Shown here: positions 55,974-64,000 of the stretch, piece by piece | How positions within the stretch are numbered: the stretch's first letter is position 1 | Layout: every line of letters begins with the position of its first letter | Assembly (NCBI GenBank): GCA_965248355.1 | Contig: OZ252098.1 | Span: 800,001 to 864,000 of the forward strand | Origin: Candidatus Latescibacterota bacterium | GTDB lineage: Bacteria > Latescibacterota > UBA2968 > UBA8231 | Reading direction: 5' to 3' | DNA length: 64,000 nt | Notes under the pieces: model-generated | The model's input: the letters and a program-made list of their open reading frames with translations, nothing else | Told to the model about the DNA's origin: nothing | Databases searched by the model: none | Made by a program: the position numbers and the translations under genes

Positions 55974-58412
55974 TTGAGCAACGGCGACCTCAACTGGATC
56001 GCGAACTACATCTGGGGCATCGCCGACGACGTCCTGCGCGACCTCTACGTGCGCGGCAAGTACCGCGACGTGATCCTGCCCATGACCGTGCTGCGCCGGC
56101 TCGACGCGGTGCTGGAGGACAGCAAGCAGGCGGTTCTGGACATGAAGGCCACCCTCGACGAAGCCGGGGTCGTCGAGCAGGATGCGACCCTGCGGCAGGT
56201 CGCGGGTCAGGCCTTCTACAACACCTCGAAGTTCACCCTGCGCGACCTGCGCGCCCGCGCCAACCGCCAGCAGCTCGAGGCCGACTTCCGGGCCTGGCTC
56301 GACGGGTTCTCGCCCAGCGTGCAGGACATCCTCGACAACTTCGAGTTCCGCAACCAGATACAGAGACTCTCCAGGGCCGACGCCCTGGGCACGCTGATCG
56401 AGAAGCTGACCTCCCCCGACATCAACCTGAGCCCAGCCCCGGTGCGCAACGCCGACGGCTCGGTCCGGCACCCCGGCCTCGACAACCACGGCATGGGCAC
56501 GATCTTCGAGGAACTGATCCGGCGCTTCAACGAGGAGAACAACGAGGAGGCGGGCGAGCACTGGACCCCGCGCGACGCCGTGACCCTGATGGCGAAGCTG
56601 GTCTTCCTGCCCGTGGCCGACCGGATCAAGTCCGGCACCTACCTGATCTACGACGGGGCCTGCGGCACCGGCGGCATGCTGACCGTGGCCGAGGACGTGC
56701 TGCAGCAGCTCGCCGCCGAGCACGGCAAGCAGGTATCCACCCACCTGTTCGGCCAGGAGATCAACGCCGAGACCTACGCCATCTGCAAGGCCGACTTGCT
56801 GCTGAAGGGGGAAGGGGACGCCGCCGACAACATCGTGGGCGGCCCCGAGCACTCGACCCTGGCCAACGACGCCTTCCCCTCCCGCGAGTTCGACTTCATG
56901 CTCTCCAATCCCCCCTACGGCAAGAGCTGGAAGACCGACCTGGAGCGCATGGGCGGCAAGCGCGACATGCGCGACCCCCGCTTCGTGATCGAGCACGACG
57001 GCGATCCCGAGTACTCCCTGGTCACCCGCTCCAGCGACGGCCAGATGCTCTTCCTCGCCAACAAGCTGTCCAAGATGAAGCCGGGCGGCAGCCGCATCGC
57101 CGAAGTCCACAACGGCAGCTCCCTGTTCACCGGCGACGCCGGCCAGGGCGAGAGCAACATCCGCCGCTGGATCATCGAGAACGACTGGCTGGAGGCGATC
57201 GTCGCCCTGCCCCTCAACATGTTCTACAACACCGGCATCGCCACCTACGTCTGGGTGCTCACCAACCGCAAGCCGGAGCAGCGCCGGGGCAAGGTGCAGC
57301 TGATCGACGCCACCGGGTGGCACCGGCCCCTGCGCAAGAACCTGGGCAAGAAGAACTGCGAGCTCGGCGAGGAGGACATCCAGCGCATCTGCGACACCTT
57401 CCTCGCCTTCGAGGAGAGCGAGCAGAGCAGGATCTTCGACAACGCCGCCTTCGGCTACTGGAAGGTGACGGTCGAGCGTCCGCTGCGGCTCGAAGGAGCC
57501 GACCCCGACCGAGCCTACAAGACCGCCGAGATCAAGAAGCTCAAGGAGAGCTGCGAGCGCAGCGAGACCGCGCCGCCCGTCATCAGGAAGATCCACAGGA
57601 GGGGCACGGAGGCCGACCCGCTGCGCGGCCGGTTCGAGGCTACTGTCAACGGCAGGTCCGCCGTGGTGGAGTACGAACCGGACACCGATCTGCGCGACAC
57701 CGAGCAGATCCCGCTGCAGGAGGAAGGCGGCATCGAGGCGTTCCTGCGGCGGGAGGTGGTGCCCTTTGCGGCTGACGCCTGGTGCCAACCGGACAGCGTG
57801 AGGATCGGCTACGAGATCAGCTTCACGCGGTATTTCTACAAGCCCCAACCGATGCGGACGCTGCAGGAGATCGGGGCGGATATTCTAGAGATAGAGAAAG
57901 AGACTGAGGGGCTGCTCGGCGATCTGCCGATGGTGCGCGAACCGCCGACTGAGTACGGCAAGCCGCGCATCTACGTGGACACCTCGGTGATCGGCGGCTG
58001 CCATGACGATGAATTCCGCGAACAATCGATGCAGTTGTTCGAGATGTTTCGCCAAGGAGAAGCCAAGATGCTCCTCTCGGGCATCACTCTGGATGAACTT
58101 GCGGATGCTCCGCCCTCCGTCAGGCAGGCAACCAGCACCGTTCCCCCGGAACACGCGGAGCTGCTCGCCACTTCAAGAGAGGCAGAAGAGCTCGCCGATG
58201 CCTACATCTCGGCTGGGGCCATGGGTGGGGCCAACCTGAACGATGCGCTGCACATCGCTCTCGCGACCTTGGCCAAGGCCGATGTCCTGGTGAGCTGGAA
58301 TTTCAGGCACATGGTGAACTGGCGGCGCATCAGGGTCTGCAACAAGGTAAATCGAGAGAACGGCTACTCTGCTATTGACATTCGAACTCCGGAGGAAATT
58401 ACCCATGACTAA
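55974..58412 (+). CDS. hsdM: type I R-M methyltransferase HsdM fused to a C-terminal PIN (VapC-like) nuclease domain (about 57960-58412)
   Basis: IW.IADD.LR, AGEHWTPR, YDGACGTGGML, NPPY, IGYEI.F.RYFY; continues without a stop into IYVDTSV...LDEL...DALHIA...DVLVSWNFRHMVN. Confidence 0.9.
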   Translation: MSNGDLNWIANYIWGIADDVLRDLYVRGKYRDVILPMTVLRRLDAVLEDSKQAVLDMKATLDEAGVVEQDATLRQVAGQAFYNTSKFTLRDLRARANRQQLEADFRAWLDGFSPSVQDILDNFEFRNQIQRLSRADALGTLIEKLTSPDINLSPAPVRNADGSVRHPGLDNHGMGTIFEELIRRFNEENNEEAGEHWTPRDAVTLMAKLVFLPVADRIKSGTYLIYDGACGTGGMLTVAEDVLQQLAAEHGKQVSTHLFGQEINAETYAICKADLLLKGEGDAADNIVGGPEHSTLANDAFPSREFDFMLSNPPYGKSWKTDLERMGGKRDMRDPRFVIEHDGDPEYSLVTRSSDGQMLFLANKLSKMKPGGSRIAEVHNGSSLFTGDAGQGESNIRRWIIENDWLEAIVALPLNMFYNTGIATYVWVLTNRKPEQRRGKVQLIDATGWHRPLRKNLGKKNCELGEEDIQRICDTFLAFEESEQSRIFDNAAFGYWKVTVERPLRLEGADPDRAYKTAEIKKLKESCERSETAPPVIRKIHRRGTEADPLRGRFEATVNGRSAVVEYEPDTDLRDTEQIPLQEEGGIEAFLRREVVPFAADAWCQPDSVRIGYEISFTRYFYKPQPMRTLQEIGADILEIEKETEGLLGDLPMVREPPTEYGKPRIYVDTSVIGGCHDDEFREQSMQLFEMFRQGEAKMLLSGITLDELADAPPSVRQATSTVPPEHAELLATSREAEELADAYISAGAMGGANLNDALHIALATLAKADVLVSWNFRHMVNWRRIRVCNKVNRENGYSAIDIRTPEEITHD

Positions 58413-58620
58413 GGCCCGTCCCAGCAAGAAGAAATTCGACTGCGTCAAATTCATGCGCGAAGCCCGCGCCCGCAGTGTCGCCGAGACCGCCAACATGACG
58501 ATTGACGAACGGATAGAGTGGTTCAATTCCAAGCGGTATTCCGACCCCGCGCTGGAGGCATTGGCCGCGCGAATGCGCCAATCAACACAGGCCAGGCCCA
58601 CAGATAGTCGCGACGACTGA
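58405..58620 (+). CDS. small putative antitoxin partner of the PIN domain
   Basis: 71 aa, KKFDCVKFMREAR...ETANMT..E; GGAGG RBS; overlaps the hsdM-PIN stop. Confidence 0.65.
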   Translation: MTKARPSKKKFDCVKFMREARARSVAETANMTIDERIEWFNSKRYSDPALEALAARMRQSTQARPTDSRDD

Positions 58621-58654
58621 GCCAAGAGGGAAACCGATACCGCAGGAGCGAGCG

Positions 58655-58873
58655 ATGTCCAGCACCGAGATCATCTTTGAAGTCAGCGAAGACGAAATAG
58701 ATGGGGGTTATTCAGCAAGTGCGCCTGGATATGGCATCCATATGCAGGGCGAAGACTGGAACGACCTGAAGGCCATGGTGCGAGACGCGGTGCTTTGCCA
58801 CTTTGACGACTCCATGCCGCGGCCCAAGTTGATTCGCCTTCACTTCGTTCGTGATGAGATTCTCTTGGTATGA
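58655..58873 (+). CDS. HicB-like antitoxin-fold small protein (no adjacent hicA)
   Basis: EIIFEV.ED..DGGY.A.A.G..I..QG....DLK.MVRDAV.CHFD; AGGAG RBS. Confidence 0.7.
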   Translation: MSSTEIIFEVSEDEIDGGYSASAPGYGIHMQGEDWNDLKAMVRDAVLCHFDDSMPRPKLIRLHFVRDEILLV

Positions 58874-60276
58874 AGTTATCCAGTACTGGGGCACTGAAGC
58901 CGTATCCGGAGATGAAGGACTCCGGTGTAGAATGGCTGGGGGGCGTGCCGATGCATTGGGAGGGGCGTCGGCTACGCACCTTGGTCAGGATCATAAATGG
59001 TGCTACGCCTGCAAGTGGGGAGCCAAGGTATTGGGATGGTCAGATCACCTGGATTACGCCGGAGGATCTTGGCAAGTTGTCCGGCGAGTACGTTGGAGAA
59101 AGTGGACGACAGATAACAACTGAGGGCTATGATGCTTGTGGAACAACCCTCGCGCCATCAGGAAGTGTCGCTCTGTCGATAAGAGCACCGATCGGCCACC
59201 TCGGGTTACTGACTTCAAGCGCCTGCGTGAATCAAGGTTGCCGATTGTTGGTCCCGGGTGACGCGCTCCGTTCTTCTTTTTTGTATCAGGCACTCAAGAC
59301 TGCACGGGGGGAATTAGCATCTCTGGGCCAAGGTACGACTTTTTCGGAACTCCCTGCGGGTAAGTTGGCCGATCTACGCATGACGCTCCCGCCCCTCGCC
59401 GAACAAACTGCCATCGTCTGCTTCCTCGACCACGCCGACCGGCGCGTCCGGCGCTACATCCGCGCCAAGCAGAAGCTGATCGCGCTGCTGGAGGAGCAGA
59501 AGCAGGCCATCATTCACCAGGCCGTCACGGGCCAGATCGACGTCCGAACCGGCGAGCCGTACCCATCATACAGGGTCTCCGGTGTGGAGTGGCTAGGGGA
59601 TGTGCCTGGGCATTGGGAGGTCCCTGCTTTGCACCACAGATACTCGCAGTGCCTAGGTAAGATGCTGGACTCCAAACGACTTACCGGAACGCACTCGGTT
59701 CCGTATCTGCGGAATGTTGACGTTCAGTGGGACCAGATCAACACCAAGGACCTTCCCAGTATGGATATCCCGCCAGACGAATACGAGCGCTACACCGTTC
59801 AAGAGGACGACTTGCTCGTATGCGAAGGGGGGGAGATAGGCCGCTGCGCTCTGTGGTCGGGTGAAGTGGCCATATGCGGATTTCAAAAGGCGCTTCACCG
59901 GCTCCGCCCTCGCAATGCCCGCCAGGATGTTCCACGGTTCATGCACTATGCCCTCCGTGCTGCGGCGAAAGGCAACGCTTTCAGTGATGGACATCTCAGT
60001 ACTATCGCCCACCTGACAGGTGAAAAGCTGAGATCACACCGCTTCCCATTCCCGCCCGTAGCAGAGCAAGAATCGGTGGTCCGCTTTCTCGATGGCGTTC
60101 TGAATCAGGCTGACCATTCGGTTTCTTGCGTCCGCCGCCAAATCGACGTCCTCCGCGAATACCGCACCCGTCTGATCGCCGATGTCGTCACCGGCAAGCT
60201 GGACGTGCGCGAGGCGGCGCCTGGATTACCTGAGACAGACGTCCCCAGCGATACCCCTGAGTCGGCAGAAGAGTAA
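58870..60276 (+). CDS. hsdS: type I R-M specificity subunit HsdS
   Basis: Two repeats of SGVEWLG.VP.HWE and of PP..EQ..(I/V)V.FLD; two variable TRDs; LIADVVTGKLDVR. Confidence 0.93.
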   Translation: MKLSSTGALKPYPEMKDSGVEWLGGVPMHWEGRRLRTLVRIINGATPASGEPRYWDGQITWITPEDLGKLSGEYVGESGRQITTEGYDACGTTLAPSGSVALSIRAPIGHLGLLTSSACVNQGCRLLVPGDALRSSFLYQALKTARGELASLGQGTTFSELPAGKLADLRMTLPPLAEQTAIVCFLDHADRRVRRYIRAKQKLIALLEEQKQAIIHQAVTGQIDVRTGEPYPSYRVSGVEWLGDVPGHWEVPALHHRYSQCLGKMLDSKRLTGTHSVPYLRNVDVQWDQINTKDLPSMDIPPDEYERYTVQEDDLLVCEGGEIGRCALWSGEVAICGFQKALHRLRPRNARQDVPRFMHYALRAAAKGNAFSDGHLSTIAHLTGEKLRSHRFPFPPVAEQESVVRFLDGVLNQADHSVSCVRRQIDVLREYRTRLIADVVTGKLDVREAAPGLPETDVPSDTPESAEE

Positions 60277-60292
60277 CAGAATCGAAAAGGAG

Positions 60293-60649
60293 GTGCCCGC
60301 ATGGCGGACTGGAGCCCGGCTCCGGGCGGCGGAGCTGGACATGTCGGTATCCGCCCTGGTCCTGGACTACCTGAGGAACTTGGTTGCAGACCGCGCCGTC
60401 CGAACAGCGGACAAGGGGCTGGACGTGGAGGCAGAGGCCGAACGTCGTCGTAGGATGTTGTGGGAGGTCGTTGAGAAGGTCACCGCCAAGGGCGGCGGAT
60501 TGCGTATGGCCGACAACCTGTCCCGGGAGGAGCTGTACGACCGGGCAAGGGCAAGGGCAAGGGCCGAGGCTCAGGCGGCGGCCCTCGCCGAACGCCAGGA
60601 CCTCAAGGGCGGGGCAAGATGGCGCAGACTGAGTACCTGGTCATTGTAG
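60293..60649 (+). pseudogene. 5'-truncated paralog of the RHH-type antitoxin at 60993-61298
   Basis: RAAELDMSVSALVLDYLR...GLRMADNLSREELYDRARARA matches the downstream gene; the N-terminal MKNITVSV strand is absent. Confidence 0.65.
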
Positions 60650-60840
60650 AGAGACATGGCCCCCGCGCATATGGGGCGTATGTGCCGGAACTGCCGGGCA
60701 TCGGTGTGGCCGGGAAAACGGAGGATGAGGTGCGTGACTTGGTCGCCGACGCGATCAGGCTGTATCTCGATGAGCTCGAGCGGGGCGGGGATCCAGCGAC
60801 GGATTCGGTCGTGGTGAACCACTACACGGTTACTGTTTGA
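60619..60840 (+). CDS. hicB: HicB-family antitoxin (orphan, short form)
   Basis: YLVIVE....YGAYVPELPG....GKT.DE......DAI..YL. Confidence 0.8.
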   Translation: MAQTEYLVIVERHGPRAYGAYVPELPGIGVAGKTEDEVRDLVADAIRLYLDELERGGDPATDSVVVNHYTVTV

Positions 60841-60968
60841 CCATAGGGGCCAGCAGCGAACGCGGCCTCGAACGCCTCATCTGTACGGCCCTGGCGGGCC
60901 AGCCCCTGAAGGCTCCCCCTCCGCCGGCGGTGTTGCCCATCGGCCATTGAGCACCTACTATTGTGCCA

Positions 60969-60981
60969 CACAGAAACTGTG
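60969..60981. promoter_or_regulatory. palindromic operator CACAG-AAA-CTGTG upstream of the vapBC-like pair
   Basis: Perfect 5-bp inverted repeat 11 nt upstream of the antitoxin ATG. Confidence 0.5.
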
Positions 60982-60992
60982 AGGCTGTGACC

Positions 60993-61298
60993 ATGAAGAA
61001 CATCACCGTATCCGTCGACGAACAGACCCACCGGCTCGCCCGCATCCGGGCGGCGGAACTGGACACGTCGGTATCTGCCTTGGTGCGGGACTACCTGAGG
61101 AGCCTGGCGTCCGGTAGCAGAGACGCGGAGAAAGAGGCCGAGCGTCGCCGTGAGCTGATGCGGCAGGTCTTTCAGGACTTCGATGCCCGTGGCGTCGGCC
61201 TGAGGATGTCCGACAATCTCACCCGCGAAGAGCTATACGACCGGGCCCGCGCGCGGGCGGAGGCCGAGGGTGAACGCCGGTCTCGCCCAACCGGGTAG
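60993..61298 (+). CDS. ribbon-helix-helix antitoxin (VapB-like)
   Basis: MKNITVSVDE...ARIRAAE..TSVSALVRDYL; LTREELYDR tail; directly upstream of a PIN gene. Confidence 0.8.
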   Translation: MKNITVSVDEQTHRLARIRAAELDTSVSALVRDYLRSLASGSRDAEKEAERRRELMRQVFQDFDARGVGLRMSDNLTREELYDRARARAEAEGERRSRPTG

Positions 61299-61303
61299 CT
61301 GCG

Positions 61304-61726
61304 GTGCGCCTCGTCGACACCAACGTGCTGCTGTACGCGGCGAGCCGGTTGCCTGAGGAGGCCGGCAAACGGGACCGCGCCCGTGAGCTTCTCGCGGGTA
61401 CCGACCTTGCCGTATCGGTGCAAGTCCTGCAGGAGTTCTATCACCAGGCAACGCGCTCGACTCGACCCGGAAGGCTGACTCATGACGATGCCTGGGTGTT
61501 CTTGGGGCCGGTCATGATGATTCCGGTCCAAGAGCTCACCCTCAGCATCTTCCAGGACGCGGTAGCCATCAGCCAACGCTTCCGGCTGTCCTGCTGGGAC
61601 GGTGCCATTCTTGCGGCGGCGCGCGCCTTGGGCTGCGATGCGGTCTACTCTGAGGACCTCGGTTCGGAACAGGACTACGATGGCCTCCGGGTCATAAACC
61701 CGTTCGTCGAGCTGGTAAGCTCATGA
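61304..61726 (+). CDS. vapC: PIN-domain toxin (VapC-like)
   Basis: VDTNVLLYA, SVQVLQEF, LS.WD..I.AAA, YSEDL and INPF motifs. Confidence 0.88.
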   Translation: MRLVDTNVLLYAASRLPEEAGKRDRARELLAGTDLAVSVQVLQEFYHQATRSTRPGRLTHDDAWVFLGPVMMIPVQELTLSIFQDAVAISQRFRLSCWDGAILAAARALGCDAVYSEDLGSEQDYDGLRVINPFVELVSS

Positions 61727-62002
61727 CCGCCGTGTTGGTGGAAGATCGTCGAATTACTGGGGATGGTAAAGTACTGTTGAATCGGGGAATGCCTTTCGTC
61801 AGGTGGTGGGGTTGCAGCTCGGTGGATCGCTATTCGTACCCACCTAATAGAGAAGGACGACAAGCGAATGGAACTTGAAACGACCACGAAGGTGCCAGTG
61901 CAGAAGCTTCGACTGGATGGCAGTAACCCGCGGCTGCTAGGGCAAGCGGAGGATGCATCCGACGAGTCGATCATCGCGCGGCTCTACCTCTCGGCGGAGC
62001 TC

Positions 62003-63426
62003 GGGCAAGTCCCATTCTCAGTTGAAACGTAGCCCAGGCTCGAGTGGATGAGTCAGCCCGTCATCGCGAGCTGATGGATGCCGAGCTCGGCTTGGAGCGC
62101 TAGCCGGAGCATCGGCAGGTGGTGGTAGCCGTTGACCCGGCGCAGGCGAGGTTCGATGTCGAGCAACGCCGTGGCCACCCAGCGGTGACGCTGCGACGAG
62201 TTCGTCCAGCGCCGCACGTTGCGCGTCAACTGCTCCAGGAGACTGTTGACGTTCTCGATACAGTTGGTGGTTCGGAAGGAGGCCTTCAGCATCGGCATCA
62301 GGCCCAGGCGGTGGAGCGTGAGGGTTTCTTCCAGACCTTCCTCCAAGCTGCGCAGGGCCGACTGGTTCATCAACTGCAACCCCGGTTTCAGCGCCTCCAG
62401 GGCGGCTTGGGCCTCCTCGTACGTCGAGTGCCCATACGCCGCTTCCAGCTTTCGACGAAGGCCGGCCTGCTCGCTCTTGGGCAGGTACGAGACCACGTTC
62501 TGGCGCTTGTGATACTGGCATCGCTGCACGCAGGCATGGCCCTGGAGCACCGACCGCACCGCCTTGTACAGGCCCTGGCCTCCATCGATCACCACGAGCA
62601 GCCCGGCTTCGTATTGCAGGCCTCGCTCGACCAACTCCGCCAGGAAGCGACGACAGACCCGCTCGTTCTCGGTCGCCGCCTGCACGAAACCCAAGGGCAC
62701 TTTCAGGCCCTCCAGAGTCACACCCAGGGCGATGAGGATCTCCTCGTCGGCGAAGCTCTTGCCGTCCAGAAACAGCGCCACCAGGTCGTAGCCTTCCAAG
62801 GATCGCTGCTGGAATTCGGCCAGCTTGCGCGCCGTGCCTTTCACGTACCGGCGAGAGACCGAGGAACGGGACAGACCGAAGGCTTGCGGGACGGTCTCGG
62901 CGCAGGCCTCGTAGTTGCGCGTGGCCAAGCCCTTCAGCACCCGCAACAACAGCCCCTGGTCCATCTGCCTCGGCGTCTGCAGGGCCTGATAGGCCTCCAG
63001 CGGGACCTCGGTGCCGCGGACCACATCGCGCACGCGCGGCACCTCGACCGGCAGTTTCTGATCGCCCAGGTACACCGACCCGGCCTGCGCCCCCCAGCGG
63101 CGCAACGCCTGATCCGGACCCTTGCGCTGATACCGAGGTCCGGCCAAGGCCTCGACCGACTGCTGCAGCTCCTCCGAGACCGCCTGCAGACCCAAAGGGA
63201 TCAGCAGCTGGATGACCTCGATGCGAGTCTCCAGATCGTCCATCGACGCGGTGGCTTGGCGGTTCACGGGGCCGATGGCCACGGTCCGTTTGACGCCCTT
63301 CTTCCGTGCTTGTAGCTTGCTCATGGCAGGCTCCTTGGGTTACCGATACGAGGCTTCTTGGGGATTTCTCGTATCAAACGTAACGATGGGAGCCTGTGCT
63401 ATTTCAACTAAGATCGGGACAATGCC
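62003..63426 (-). mobile_element. IS256-family insertion sequence, copy 2 (1424 bp), 8-bp target duplication CGGAGCTC at 61995-62002 and 63427-63434
   Basis: Same IRs and length as copy 1, in the opposite orientation. Confidence 0.92.
62053..63324 (-). CDS. IS256 DDE transposase
   Basis: 423 aa; differs from copy 1 at about 9 residues by my count. Confidence 0.92.
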   Translation of the reverse strand: MSKLQARKKGVKRTVAIGPVNRQATASMDDLETRIEVIQLLIPLGLQAVSEELQQSVEALAGPRYQRKGPDQALRRWGAQAGSVYLGDQKLPVEVPRVRDVVRGTEVPLEAYQALQTPRQMDQGLLLRVLKGLATRNYEACAETVPQAFGLSRSSVSRRYVKGTARKLAEFQQRSLEGYDLVALFLDGKSFADEEILIALGVTLEGLKVPLGFVQAATENERVCRRFLAELVERGLQYEAGLLVVIDGGQGLYKAVRSVLQGHACVQRCQYHKRQNVVSYLPKSEQAGLRRKLEAAYGHSTYEEAQAALEALKPGLQLMNQSALRSLEEGLEETLTLHRLGLMPMLKASFRTTNCIENVNSLLEQLTRNVRRWTNSSQRHRWVATALLDIEPRLRRVNGYHHLPMLRLALQAELGIHQLAMTG

Positions 63427-64000
63427 CGGAGCTCGACGAGCTTCTTCAGTCGATATCCGCCAACGGGTACCTCGACATCGAGCCGCTCGTCGTCATGAGC
63501 GCGTCTGAAGATGACGCGCTGATCGTCCTTGAGGGAAACCGGAGGCTGGCCACGCTTCGTCTCTTGCTGGAACCGGCCTTGGTTGGCAGGATCGCGTTCT
63601 CGGAGAATACCCGTATAGCGGTGCCTGAGATCGACGATGCGGTGCGCAGTACCTTGGATCAAGTGTCAGTCTACCTTGTCGCAAGTCGGGAGCGGGCTCG
63701 TGCGTTCATAGGTTACAAGCACATCAACGGCCCGGCCAAGTGGGATGCTTACGCCAAGGCGCGTTTTGCAGCTAAGTGGTACCGGGAGGCCCGGGATGAT
63801 GGGGTGGACCTAGAACAGATCGCAACTGCAATCGGCGACCGACACGATACGATCAAGCGGATGGTGTCGGCAATCTACGTGCTGGAGCAGGCGAAAGAAG
63901 AGGACCTGTTCGAGATCGAAGATCGCCACAGTAGCAAGTTCAATTTCTCTCATCTGTACACGGCGCTTTCGCGTTCCCAGTACATGGAGTATTTGGGTCT

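Follow-up and report, generated by a model that had tools for sequence, protein, structure and literature searches.

A type I DNA methyltransferase subunit fused to a VapC-like PIN domain, with a small basic partner encoded downstream: a candidate tethered toxin module

To our knowledge, PrrC is still the sole worked-out case in which restriction-modification (R-M) is coupled to cellular suicide. This anticodon nuclease is described as embedded in a type Ic R-M locus (i.e., EcoprrI; PMC3506569, PMC12707154), toxin-type genes or domains are reported in association with R-M with PrrC as the worked example (PMC3506569, PMC3710099, PMC12707154), and the proposal that R-M immunity is coupled to suicide or dormancy effectors dates from 2012 (PMC3506569). 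Reports also mention PIN genes that are apparently co-transcribed with type I subunits (Matelska 2017; PMC5499597), PIN and other effectors embedded in defence operons ('guilt by embedding', Payne 2024; 10.1101/2024.01.29.577857), and Mycobacterium tuberculosis vapC21, which adjoins hsdM and hsdS.1 (PMC7517352); a text supplement of PMC5499597 has no entry for N6_Mtase, HsdM_N, PF02384 or PF12161. Here, we analysed a 64,000-nucleotide stretch of a Candidatus Latescibacterota genome (contig OZ252098.1, positions 800,001 to 864,000; the whole stretch is hereafter called the window), in which the gene for the type I methylase subunit HsdM runs in frame into a VapC-like PIN domain and is directly followed by a small gene for a basic protein (hereafter the partner).

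This locus resembles PrrC/EcoprrI in that an RNase-type effector is physically tied to a type I R-M system, its gene lying within the R-M operon (PMC3506569, PMC12707154). PrrC, however, consists of an ABC-ATPase and a HEPN domain, is bound non-covalently and has no antitoxin, whereas here a PIN domain sits covalently on HsdM and has a partner of its own; the Pfam scan of the effector yielded no ATPase or HEPN match. With VapBC the locus shares the PIN fold, a conserved D/E/D putative active site, two overlapping genes, the combination of an acidic nuclease with a basic small protein and, for one plasmid copy of the PIN-partner pair, a place beside a replication (rep) gene. Unlike VapBC, it has its partner gene downstream and without a known DNA-binding class, shows no conserved upstream open reading frame (ORF), carries an SWNxxH motif in place of the fourth acidic residue, and has its toxin-type domain fused to HsdM. 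As in the embedded-gene reports, related loci embed Fic, DarT-macro, Mrr and VapBC genes, although those reports concern separate genes and not a translational HsdM-PIN fusion. Finally, CapRel SJ46 is said to have its toxin domain covalently attached to its regulator and to be switchable all the same; the present toxin domain may likewise stay attached yet be activatable, but it has another fold, a methylase as fusion partner, and a putative regulator that is usually a separate protein.

New in this locus are the conserved HsdM-PIN fusion and the large, unnamed family of reversed-order PIN-partner pairs to which it leads, while the association of toxin-type genes or domains with R-M is known. 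In line with the original prediction, to which no characterisation of the fusion was known, no paper describing a translational HsdM-PIN fusion or the partner family was found in the full-text literature (subscription journals not being covered). The conserved covalent link between a toxin-type nuclease and a methylase subunit, with a separately encoded partner, provides a system compact enough for testing how, if at all, a toxin is controlled by an R-M complex; it makes the coupling of immunity and suicide testable and could show how DNA-based and suicide-type phage defences connect. It also exposes a large uncharacterised family annotated just as 'PIN domain protein' and 'hypothetical protein'.

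A conserved in-frame fusion of HsdM and PIN

The fused gene is an uninterrupted ORF on the + strand (55974-58412) that encodes 812 amino acids (aa), with HsdM and PIN in one frame. Its HsdM core (residues 1-648; 55974..57917) comprises HsdM_N (residues 9-145, E 7.8e-21) and N6_Mtase (residues 171-483, E 4.6e-52) according to Pfam, and ends in a last helix reading EIEKETEGLL; the fused protein matches the PADLOC type I methyltransferase model MTase_I (PDLC03029, E 7.6e-235). Judged by these domains and by the S-adenosylmethionine-binding motif I (YDGACGTGG) and catalytic motif IV (NPPY) present in its translation, the HsdM part is a complete type I HsdM, methylation itself being predicted. A linker of 16 aa (residues 649-664, GDLPMVREPPTEYGKP; 57918..57965) then leads into the VapC-like PIN domain (residues 665-812, i.e., 148 residues, plus the stop codon; 57966..58412), which is supported by Pfam, AlphaFold2, Foldseek and residue conservation. 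The fused ORF of the original prediction is therefore real, and every element observed in it was found again.

When long proteins (446-1421 aa) were searched with residues 645-812, 194 of them, each representing a protein cluster, carried the window-type PIN (E<=1e-3). HsdM_N, N6_Mtase and PIN in one ORF, the combination that the original prediction had proposed to look for, was present in 108 of the 120 listed (784-899 aa), and in 24 of these the PIN part is at least 74% identical to that of the window; the remaining 12 (459-759 aa) have N6_Mtase only and look N-terminally truncated. Among the matches listed, identity to the PIN part of the window runs from 99% down to 51%, and four proteins from separate contigs (P0001, P0002, P0004 and P0005) share the same 812-aa frame with PIN parts that are 96-99% identical. 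The fused proteins go solely by the source names 'N-6 DNA methylase' or 'type I restriction enzyme M protein', and a precomputed Pfam column flags PIN for 2 of the 120 listed.

The linker could be parsed in 75 of 116 fused proteins (the other 41 did not fit the pattern), and was 16-20 aa long in 74 of these 75, with a recurrent (M/L)VREP...YG motif. Since a linker Met occurs in just 42 of the 75, ATG 57930 was rejected as a conserved internal start. The HsdM-PIN fusion is conserved and not a one-off stop loss. On plasmids, 741 records matched the fused form in part, none of them over at least 80% of the query.

One genome per species was scanned, yielding 589 confirmed relatives of which the best 80 were kept (loci L001-L080). 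Eleven of these match the HsdM tail plus PIN (L001-L011, fused-type), and 69 match PIN only (L012-L080, stand-alone). A FastTree phylogeny of 350 PIN domains, built without 27 ambiguous proteins and without domains that matched less than 135 residues of the query, grouped 134 of the 135 fused PINs (window included) in one clade of 148 tips with a local support of 97. The 14 'alone' tips inside this clade include fragments as well as pieces of broken fused genes (such as P0280, the PIN ORF of the frameshifted locus L011), and the one fused protein outside it is P0185 (774 aa).

The 120 best matches to the HsdM core (residues 1-640) are 85-96% identical to it, fused and unfused alike, with PIN carried by 43 of them and not detectable in the other 77 (655-712 aa). 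Since the core is near-identical in fused and unfused relatives, the 3' module appears to have been exchanged or lost by recombination. A weakly resolved tree of 113 very similar cores (7 of the 120 lacked the end motif and were excluded) requires no fewer than 13 switches between the fused and unfused states, versus 30-37 with shuffled labels. Moreover, the core of the window is 75-85% identical to those of L001-L010, versus 49-56% for PIN. The drop in G+C content from about 57800 that the original prediction had reported was recovered as a step from 0.66-0.69 (56000-57800) to 0.55-0.61 (57800-60050), the low value continuing through hsdS; together with the contrast between core and PIN, it supports the recombined 3' module that had been suggested on that basis.

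The site of the join could be followed in individual relatives. Of 14 unfused relatives listed, 13 terminate 10-22 residues past ETEGLL and P0472 terminates 29 residues past it, and one of the two linker types (GEIVGxQPHTRxKKLRVY...) continues the tail of unfused relatives, GEIVGAQPHTRGT-stop. Intermediate states occur as well, with P0400 retaining the last residues of PIN only and P0399 having a stop 19 residues into PIN. By these comparisons, the fusion has essentially a single origin, followed by exchange or loss among hsdM alleles that are nearly identical. The HsdM core family is highly mobile, with a recombination hot spot at the 3' end of hsdM. Plasmids of Klebsiella and Enterobacter commonly carry members of this family too, with 63% identity in the C-terminal part, and in core records P0391-P0472 and others everything 3' of the ETEGLL helix varies.

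The PIN domain, its partner and their parent family

By profile, PIN is a marginal match. The Pfam PIN family (PF01850, cut-off 23.6 bits) scored 19.0 bits against the whole protein, 23.4 bits against the piece from 57870 and 23.9 bits against the piece from ATG 57930, and the PIN_3 profile scored 20.2 bits versus a cut-off of 27. An AlphaFold2 model of residues 662-812, built on an alignment of 121 homologues, reached a predicted local distance difference test (pLDDT) score of 92.8 and a predicted template modelling (pTM) score of 0.88. Foldseek found 20 matches to it in the PDB at E<=1e-3, those to PIN/VapC having template modelling scores of 0.54-0.63 and E-values of 9e-5 to 1e-3; the best folds were archaeal PIN proteins and the VapC of solved toxin-antitoxin complexes (1w8i, 1y82, 3h87, 5h4g, 6ifc, 3zvk and 5ecw), and a few matches were to tryptophanyl-tRNA synthetase chains, with low target coverage. 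As modelled, the C-terminal domain has the three-layer alpha/beta/alpha PIN fold and is VapC-like, as the original prediction had proposed, and this fold settles the marginal Pfam score. Sequence profile searches of the PDB, with PIN and with the partner, gave chance-level matches only, with no VapC among those for PIN, and PADLOC offered no model for PIN or for the partner.

Three acidic positions are conserved in the 134 fused homologues, i.e., D669 (in 134), E708 (134) and D757 (131), next to N776 (134) and H779 (132). The residues that had been picked as likely catalytic from the sequence (the D of DTS, the E of LDEL, the D of DALH and the N of SWNF) are thus kept in 131-134 of the 134, and the putative active site of PIN is under purifying selection. 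An Asp occupies the N776 and H779 positions in 5 and 10, respectively, of 215 stand-alone members.

The partner gene (58405..58620, + strand) encodes 71 aa with an isoelectric point (pI) of 9.9, and its relatives were traced via an iterated hidden Markov model (HMM) and alignment. Its ATG (58405) overlaps the TAA of the fused ORF (58410-58412) by 8 nt and is preceded, 8 nt upstream, by GGAGGA; this overlap between two separate genes makes translational coupling of the partner to PIN probable. The HMM iterated from the window protein revealed a homologue on the same strand and directly 3' of PIN in 78 of the 80 loci, usually overlapping the PIN stop, i.e., in all 11 fused-type loci (as in the window) and in 67 of the 69 stand-alone loci, L029 and L061 being the two without it. 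An arrangement with the partner normally upstream of PIN, which P0123 and P0204 might have suggested by carrying a partner at the N-terminus of PIN, was rejected on the same count. A near-invariant motif, K-x-F-D-(C/A)-V-x-x-x-R, runs through the family alignment and reads K-x-F-D-C-V-x-x-M-R-x-x-R in the window.

The 71-aa gene is the cognate partner of PIN. The co-occurrence that the original prediction had asked about was thereby found throughout the fused-type loci, and its likely antitoxin stands as a conserved cognate partner; the antitoxin role itself stays tentative for a family-less protein encoded downstream, unlike VapB. No family match was obtained for the partner in Pfam, NCBIfam, PADLOC or the PDB, and its neighbour clusters in the Atlas are labelled 'hypothetical protein'. 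The two proteins differ in charge, with a median pI of 5.3 for PIN (below 7 in 112 of 121) versus 9.6 for the partner (above 8 in 49 of 63). In the predicted fold of a natural PIN-partner fusion (P0128), the partner consists of three helices with pLDDT 83-96.

Tandem arrays of two or three diverged partner paralogues are frequent in fused loci, with identities of 31-69% across the pairs listed (L001 10773-11218 and 13603-13875; L002 10770-11512; L003 10773-11244; L004 10779-11598 and 3524-3998; L006 10783-11252). The F/Y-D-C/A motif is kept in all listed paralogues but one, L004:11356-11598, which reads FDG. Stand-alone PIN loci nearly always have one partner copy.

PIN and partner also occur as single chains, in the orders PIN-partner and partner-PIN and, in one protein (P0073), as N6_Mtase-PIN-partner. 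P0174 is a PIN-then-partner chain with an additional N-terminal partner copy, and P0128 is the one PIN-then-partner example that is intact; the substituted single chains are P0179, P0151, P0154, P0264, P0250, P0174, L009:11064-11768 and L005:10985-11755. Two single-chain PIN-partner proteins are encoded directly after fused hsdM-PIN genes.

Searched alone, the PIN part retrieved 3473 cluster representatives at E<=1e-3, mostly of about 150 aa, and 2915 relatives of near-equal length are named 'PIN domain protein', 'predicted nucleic acid-binding protein' or 'hypothetical protein'. In the module, the gene for a PIN of about 152 aa precedes and overlaps that for a small basic partner, and the PIN of the window derives from this large unnamed two-gene family. 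Two other kinds of antitoxin were considered for the stand-alone PIN and rejected. An upstream antitoxin gene would require a conserved ORF, and the largest family common to the 227 ORFs 5' of PIN in the 69 stand-alone loci covers 2 loci; as for a ToxI-like RNA antitoxin, no consistent upstream repeat was present, with sporadic and unrelated tandem repeats in 12 of 67 loci. R-M-like neighbours, detected via phmmer with one query per subunit, adjoin 2 of the 69 stand-alone loci. The best 80 loci span at least 18 named phyla from both domains, including two archaeal phyla. On the Leptospira interrogans plasmid pLiSL47 (L081, 2495-3140), a stand-alone PIN and partner directly follow the replication initiation gene, with PIN annotated as 'type II toxin-antitoxin system VapC family toxin' and the partner as 'hypothetical protein'; a position beside a plasmid replication gene is typical of an addiction module. 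The stand-alone pair is a self-contained mobile two-gene unit with no other conserved component.

Possible modes of action

We see about an even chance that the locus encodes a toxin/partner module tethered to the methylase complex and serving locus addiction, abortive infection or both. A type I methylase subunit would have captured the nuclease gene of a free-living PIN-then-partner module. By analogy with VapC-type PIN toxins, which cut tRNA or rRNA and are inhibited by an antitoxin seated in their acidic pocket, PIN would be a VapC-type RNase that is toxic if free, and the small protein would bind it and hold it off, as in a toxin-antitoxin-like pair with reversed gene order. Since HsdM assembles into M2S1 and R2M2S1 in type I enzymes, every such complex would have two PIN:partner units attached to it through linkers of roughly 16 residues, and these linkers would adjoin the HsdM region that contacts HsdS. 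Once the supply of partner ended, which could happen through operon loss or through shut-off of host expression during infection, the tethered nuclease would become active and the cell would be arrested or killed. The outcome would be a stabilised locus, an aborted infection, or both. In the window, where hsdR is truncated, the module would act with the methylase (M+S) alone.

This tethered toxin/partner reading is favoured by the conserved, single-clade fusion, the retained putative active site, the VapC-like fold, the overlapping partner gene with no other conserved component beside it, the opposite charges of PIN and partner, the single-chain forms, the plasmid pair and the hsdS and hsdR context of the fused-type loci. 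Several observations weigh against it. The Pfam PIN score sits at the threshold, and where classical PINs have a fourth acidic residue, N776 or H779 stands instead. The partner gene lies downstream, unlike VapB, and its product matched no RHH (ribbon-helix-helix), AbrB, PHD or HTH (helix-turn-helix) family among the antitoxin and DNA-binding classes. The tandem partner paralogues are not predicted by a simple antitoxin model. In the PIN-then-partner single chains, near-invariant PIN residues are replaced in 8 of 9 and the third Asp is lost in 5 of 9, so that these chains may be inactive decoys or decaying copies and do not prove binding. Finally, the fold of P0128 combines a whole-chain pLDDT of 94.4 with a pTM of just 0.71, and the docking of the partner on PIN is therefore not settled.

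A PrrC-like guard, in which the R-M complex itself would hold PIN inactive, an anti-restriction protein binding M2S1 (of the Ocr, ArdA or Stp type) would release it and the partner would merely tune the response, strikes us as unlikely. PrrC sets the precedent (PMC3506569, PMC12707154), the covalent tether to HsdM has been kept across two phyla, and the fused PIN clade is specific to R-M loci, versus 2 of 69 stand-alone loci with R-M neighbours. That same count, however, places the module mostly outside R-M loci; it has a conserved partner of its own, whereas PrrC needs none; only a remnant of hsdR is left in the window; and phage records contained no homologue of PIN or of the partner.

Equally doubtful is a non-toxic role, with PIN as an accessory nuclease or nucleic-acid-binding domain of the methylase/restriction complex and the basic partner as its cofactor or regulator, not its inhibitor. 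A basic three-helical partner would also fit nucleic-acid binding, and the missing fourth acidic residue, the single chains joining PIN and partner and the tandem paralogues could be accommodated as well. Nevertheless, the closest folds include, beside archaeal PIN proteins, the VapC of solved toxin-antitoxin complexes, and the stand-alone pair is self-contained and mobile, occurs in at least 18 phyla and is found on a plasmid beside a rep gene. Since hsdR is present in the relatives, no replacement nuclease would be needed there either.

Somewhat less probable still is that the tethered PINs form a second-line effector with the methylase as abortive-infection sensor, the two partner-capped PINs on M2S1 being freed, or brought into an active dimer, once the complex has been distorted by a DNA-mimic anti-restriction protein or has stalled on unmodified DNA. 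The tandem diverged partner copies would then serve as a defence against phage-encoded partner mimics.

An artefact or recent accident, i.e., a sequencing or assembly error or a stop loss that joined hsdM to a PIN gene starting at ATG 57930, is very improbable: unfused relatives do end soon after ETEGLL, the window linker does hold a Met and the frame is broken in 2 of 11 related loci (L009 and L011), but the stop loss that the original prediction had named as its own refutation is already contradicted by close relatives sharing the continuous 812-aa frame, a continuous frame is common to hundreds of independent records, the linker motif is conserved with a Met in just 42 of 75, and the fused PINs form one clade.

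Operon context and the remnant of hsdR

Downstream of the partner, a family-less ORF of 72 aa (58655..58873, + strand; no Pfam match) overlaps with its stop the start of hsdS (ATGA), and has homologues in L001 (just 5' of hsdS), L006 and L009. The hsdS gene itself (58870..60276, + strand) encodes 468 aa and is supported by Pfam (Methylase_S, E 8.4e-28) and PADLOC (Specificity_I, E 3.7e-85). In the window, hsdM-PIN and hsdS thus lie on the same strand and are joined via overlapping small ORFs. Between hsdS and an insertion sequence (IS) lie an orphan RHH-like ORF (60182-60649) and a HicB-like ORF (60619-60840).

A 5' remnant of hsdR follows at 60849..60938 (+ strand), corresponding to the first 18-30 codons (SERGLERLICTALAGQP...), without a start codon and with a stop at 60939-60941. 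When five HsdR proteins of related loci were compared with the 64-kb window via tblastn, all five matched only 60849-60938 (E 1.4e-4 to 5e-3), and no intact hsdR (about 1000 aa, with HSDR_N and a superfamily 2 (SF2) motor) is present in the 3.7 kb from hsdS to the end of the window. It seems that hsdR has been lost or displaced at this locus, and the window copy is probably a methylase-only (M+S) system, unless hsdR lies further on. With no more than a 5' remnant of hsdR, this copy may lack restriction activity altogether.

An RHH-VapC pair (60963-61298 and 61304-61726) lies 3' of the remnant. Since homologues of this pair adjoin hsdR upstream in L002, L009 and L011, the R-M family recurrently carries a second, classical PIN toxin-antitoxin pair. 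Further on, a ParB-like gene (61868-64000; PADLOC PD-Lambda-5_A, E 2e-18) has apparently been interrupted by an IS256-family element (~62009-63420), with its transposase on the minus strand (62053-63324) and 19-nt terminal inverted repeats that are 84% complementary.

Fused-type relatives show the order hsdM-PIN, one to three partner genes, variable embedded genes, hsdS, more embedded genes and hsdR. Eight of the 11 loci belong to Acidobacteriota and three to Gammaproteobacteria, and hsdS and an hsdR homologue are each present in 10 of the 11. The latter is a full ORF of 962-1020 aa in six loci, runs off the end of the fetched stretch in L006 and L009, and is broken into fragments in L010 and L011; in L007 the contig does not reach as far as hsdR. 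The frame breaks in the fused gene of L009 and L011 may be assembly errors.

The embedded genes comprise Fic in L002, DarT plus macro in L004, Mrr in L005 and L008, and VapBC-like pairs. Defence genes in or beside the related operons, among which is one for a Shedu SduA_C protein, were located at L004 11669-14078, L002 13416-14282, L005 12291-13337 and L008 17873-20203. The DarT of L004 lies behind an unidentified N-terminal region, with hsdS similarity in an overlapping ORF (L004:11595-13043).

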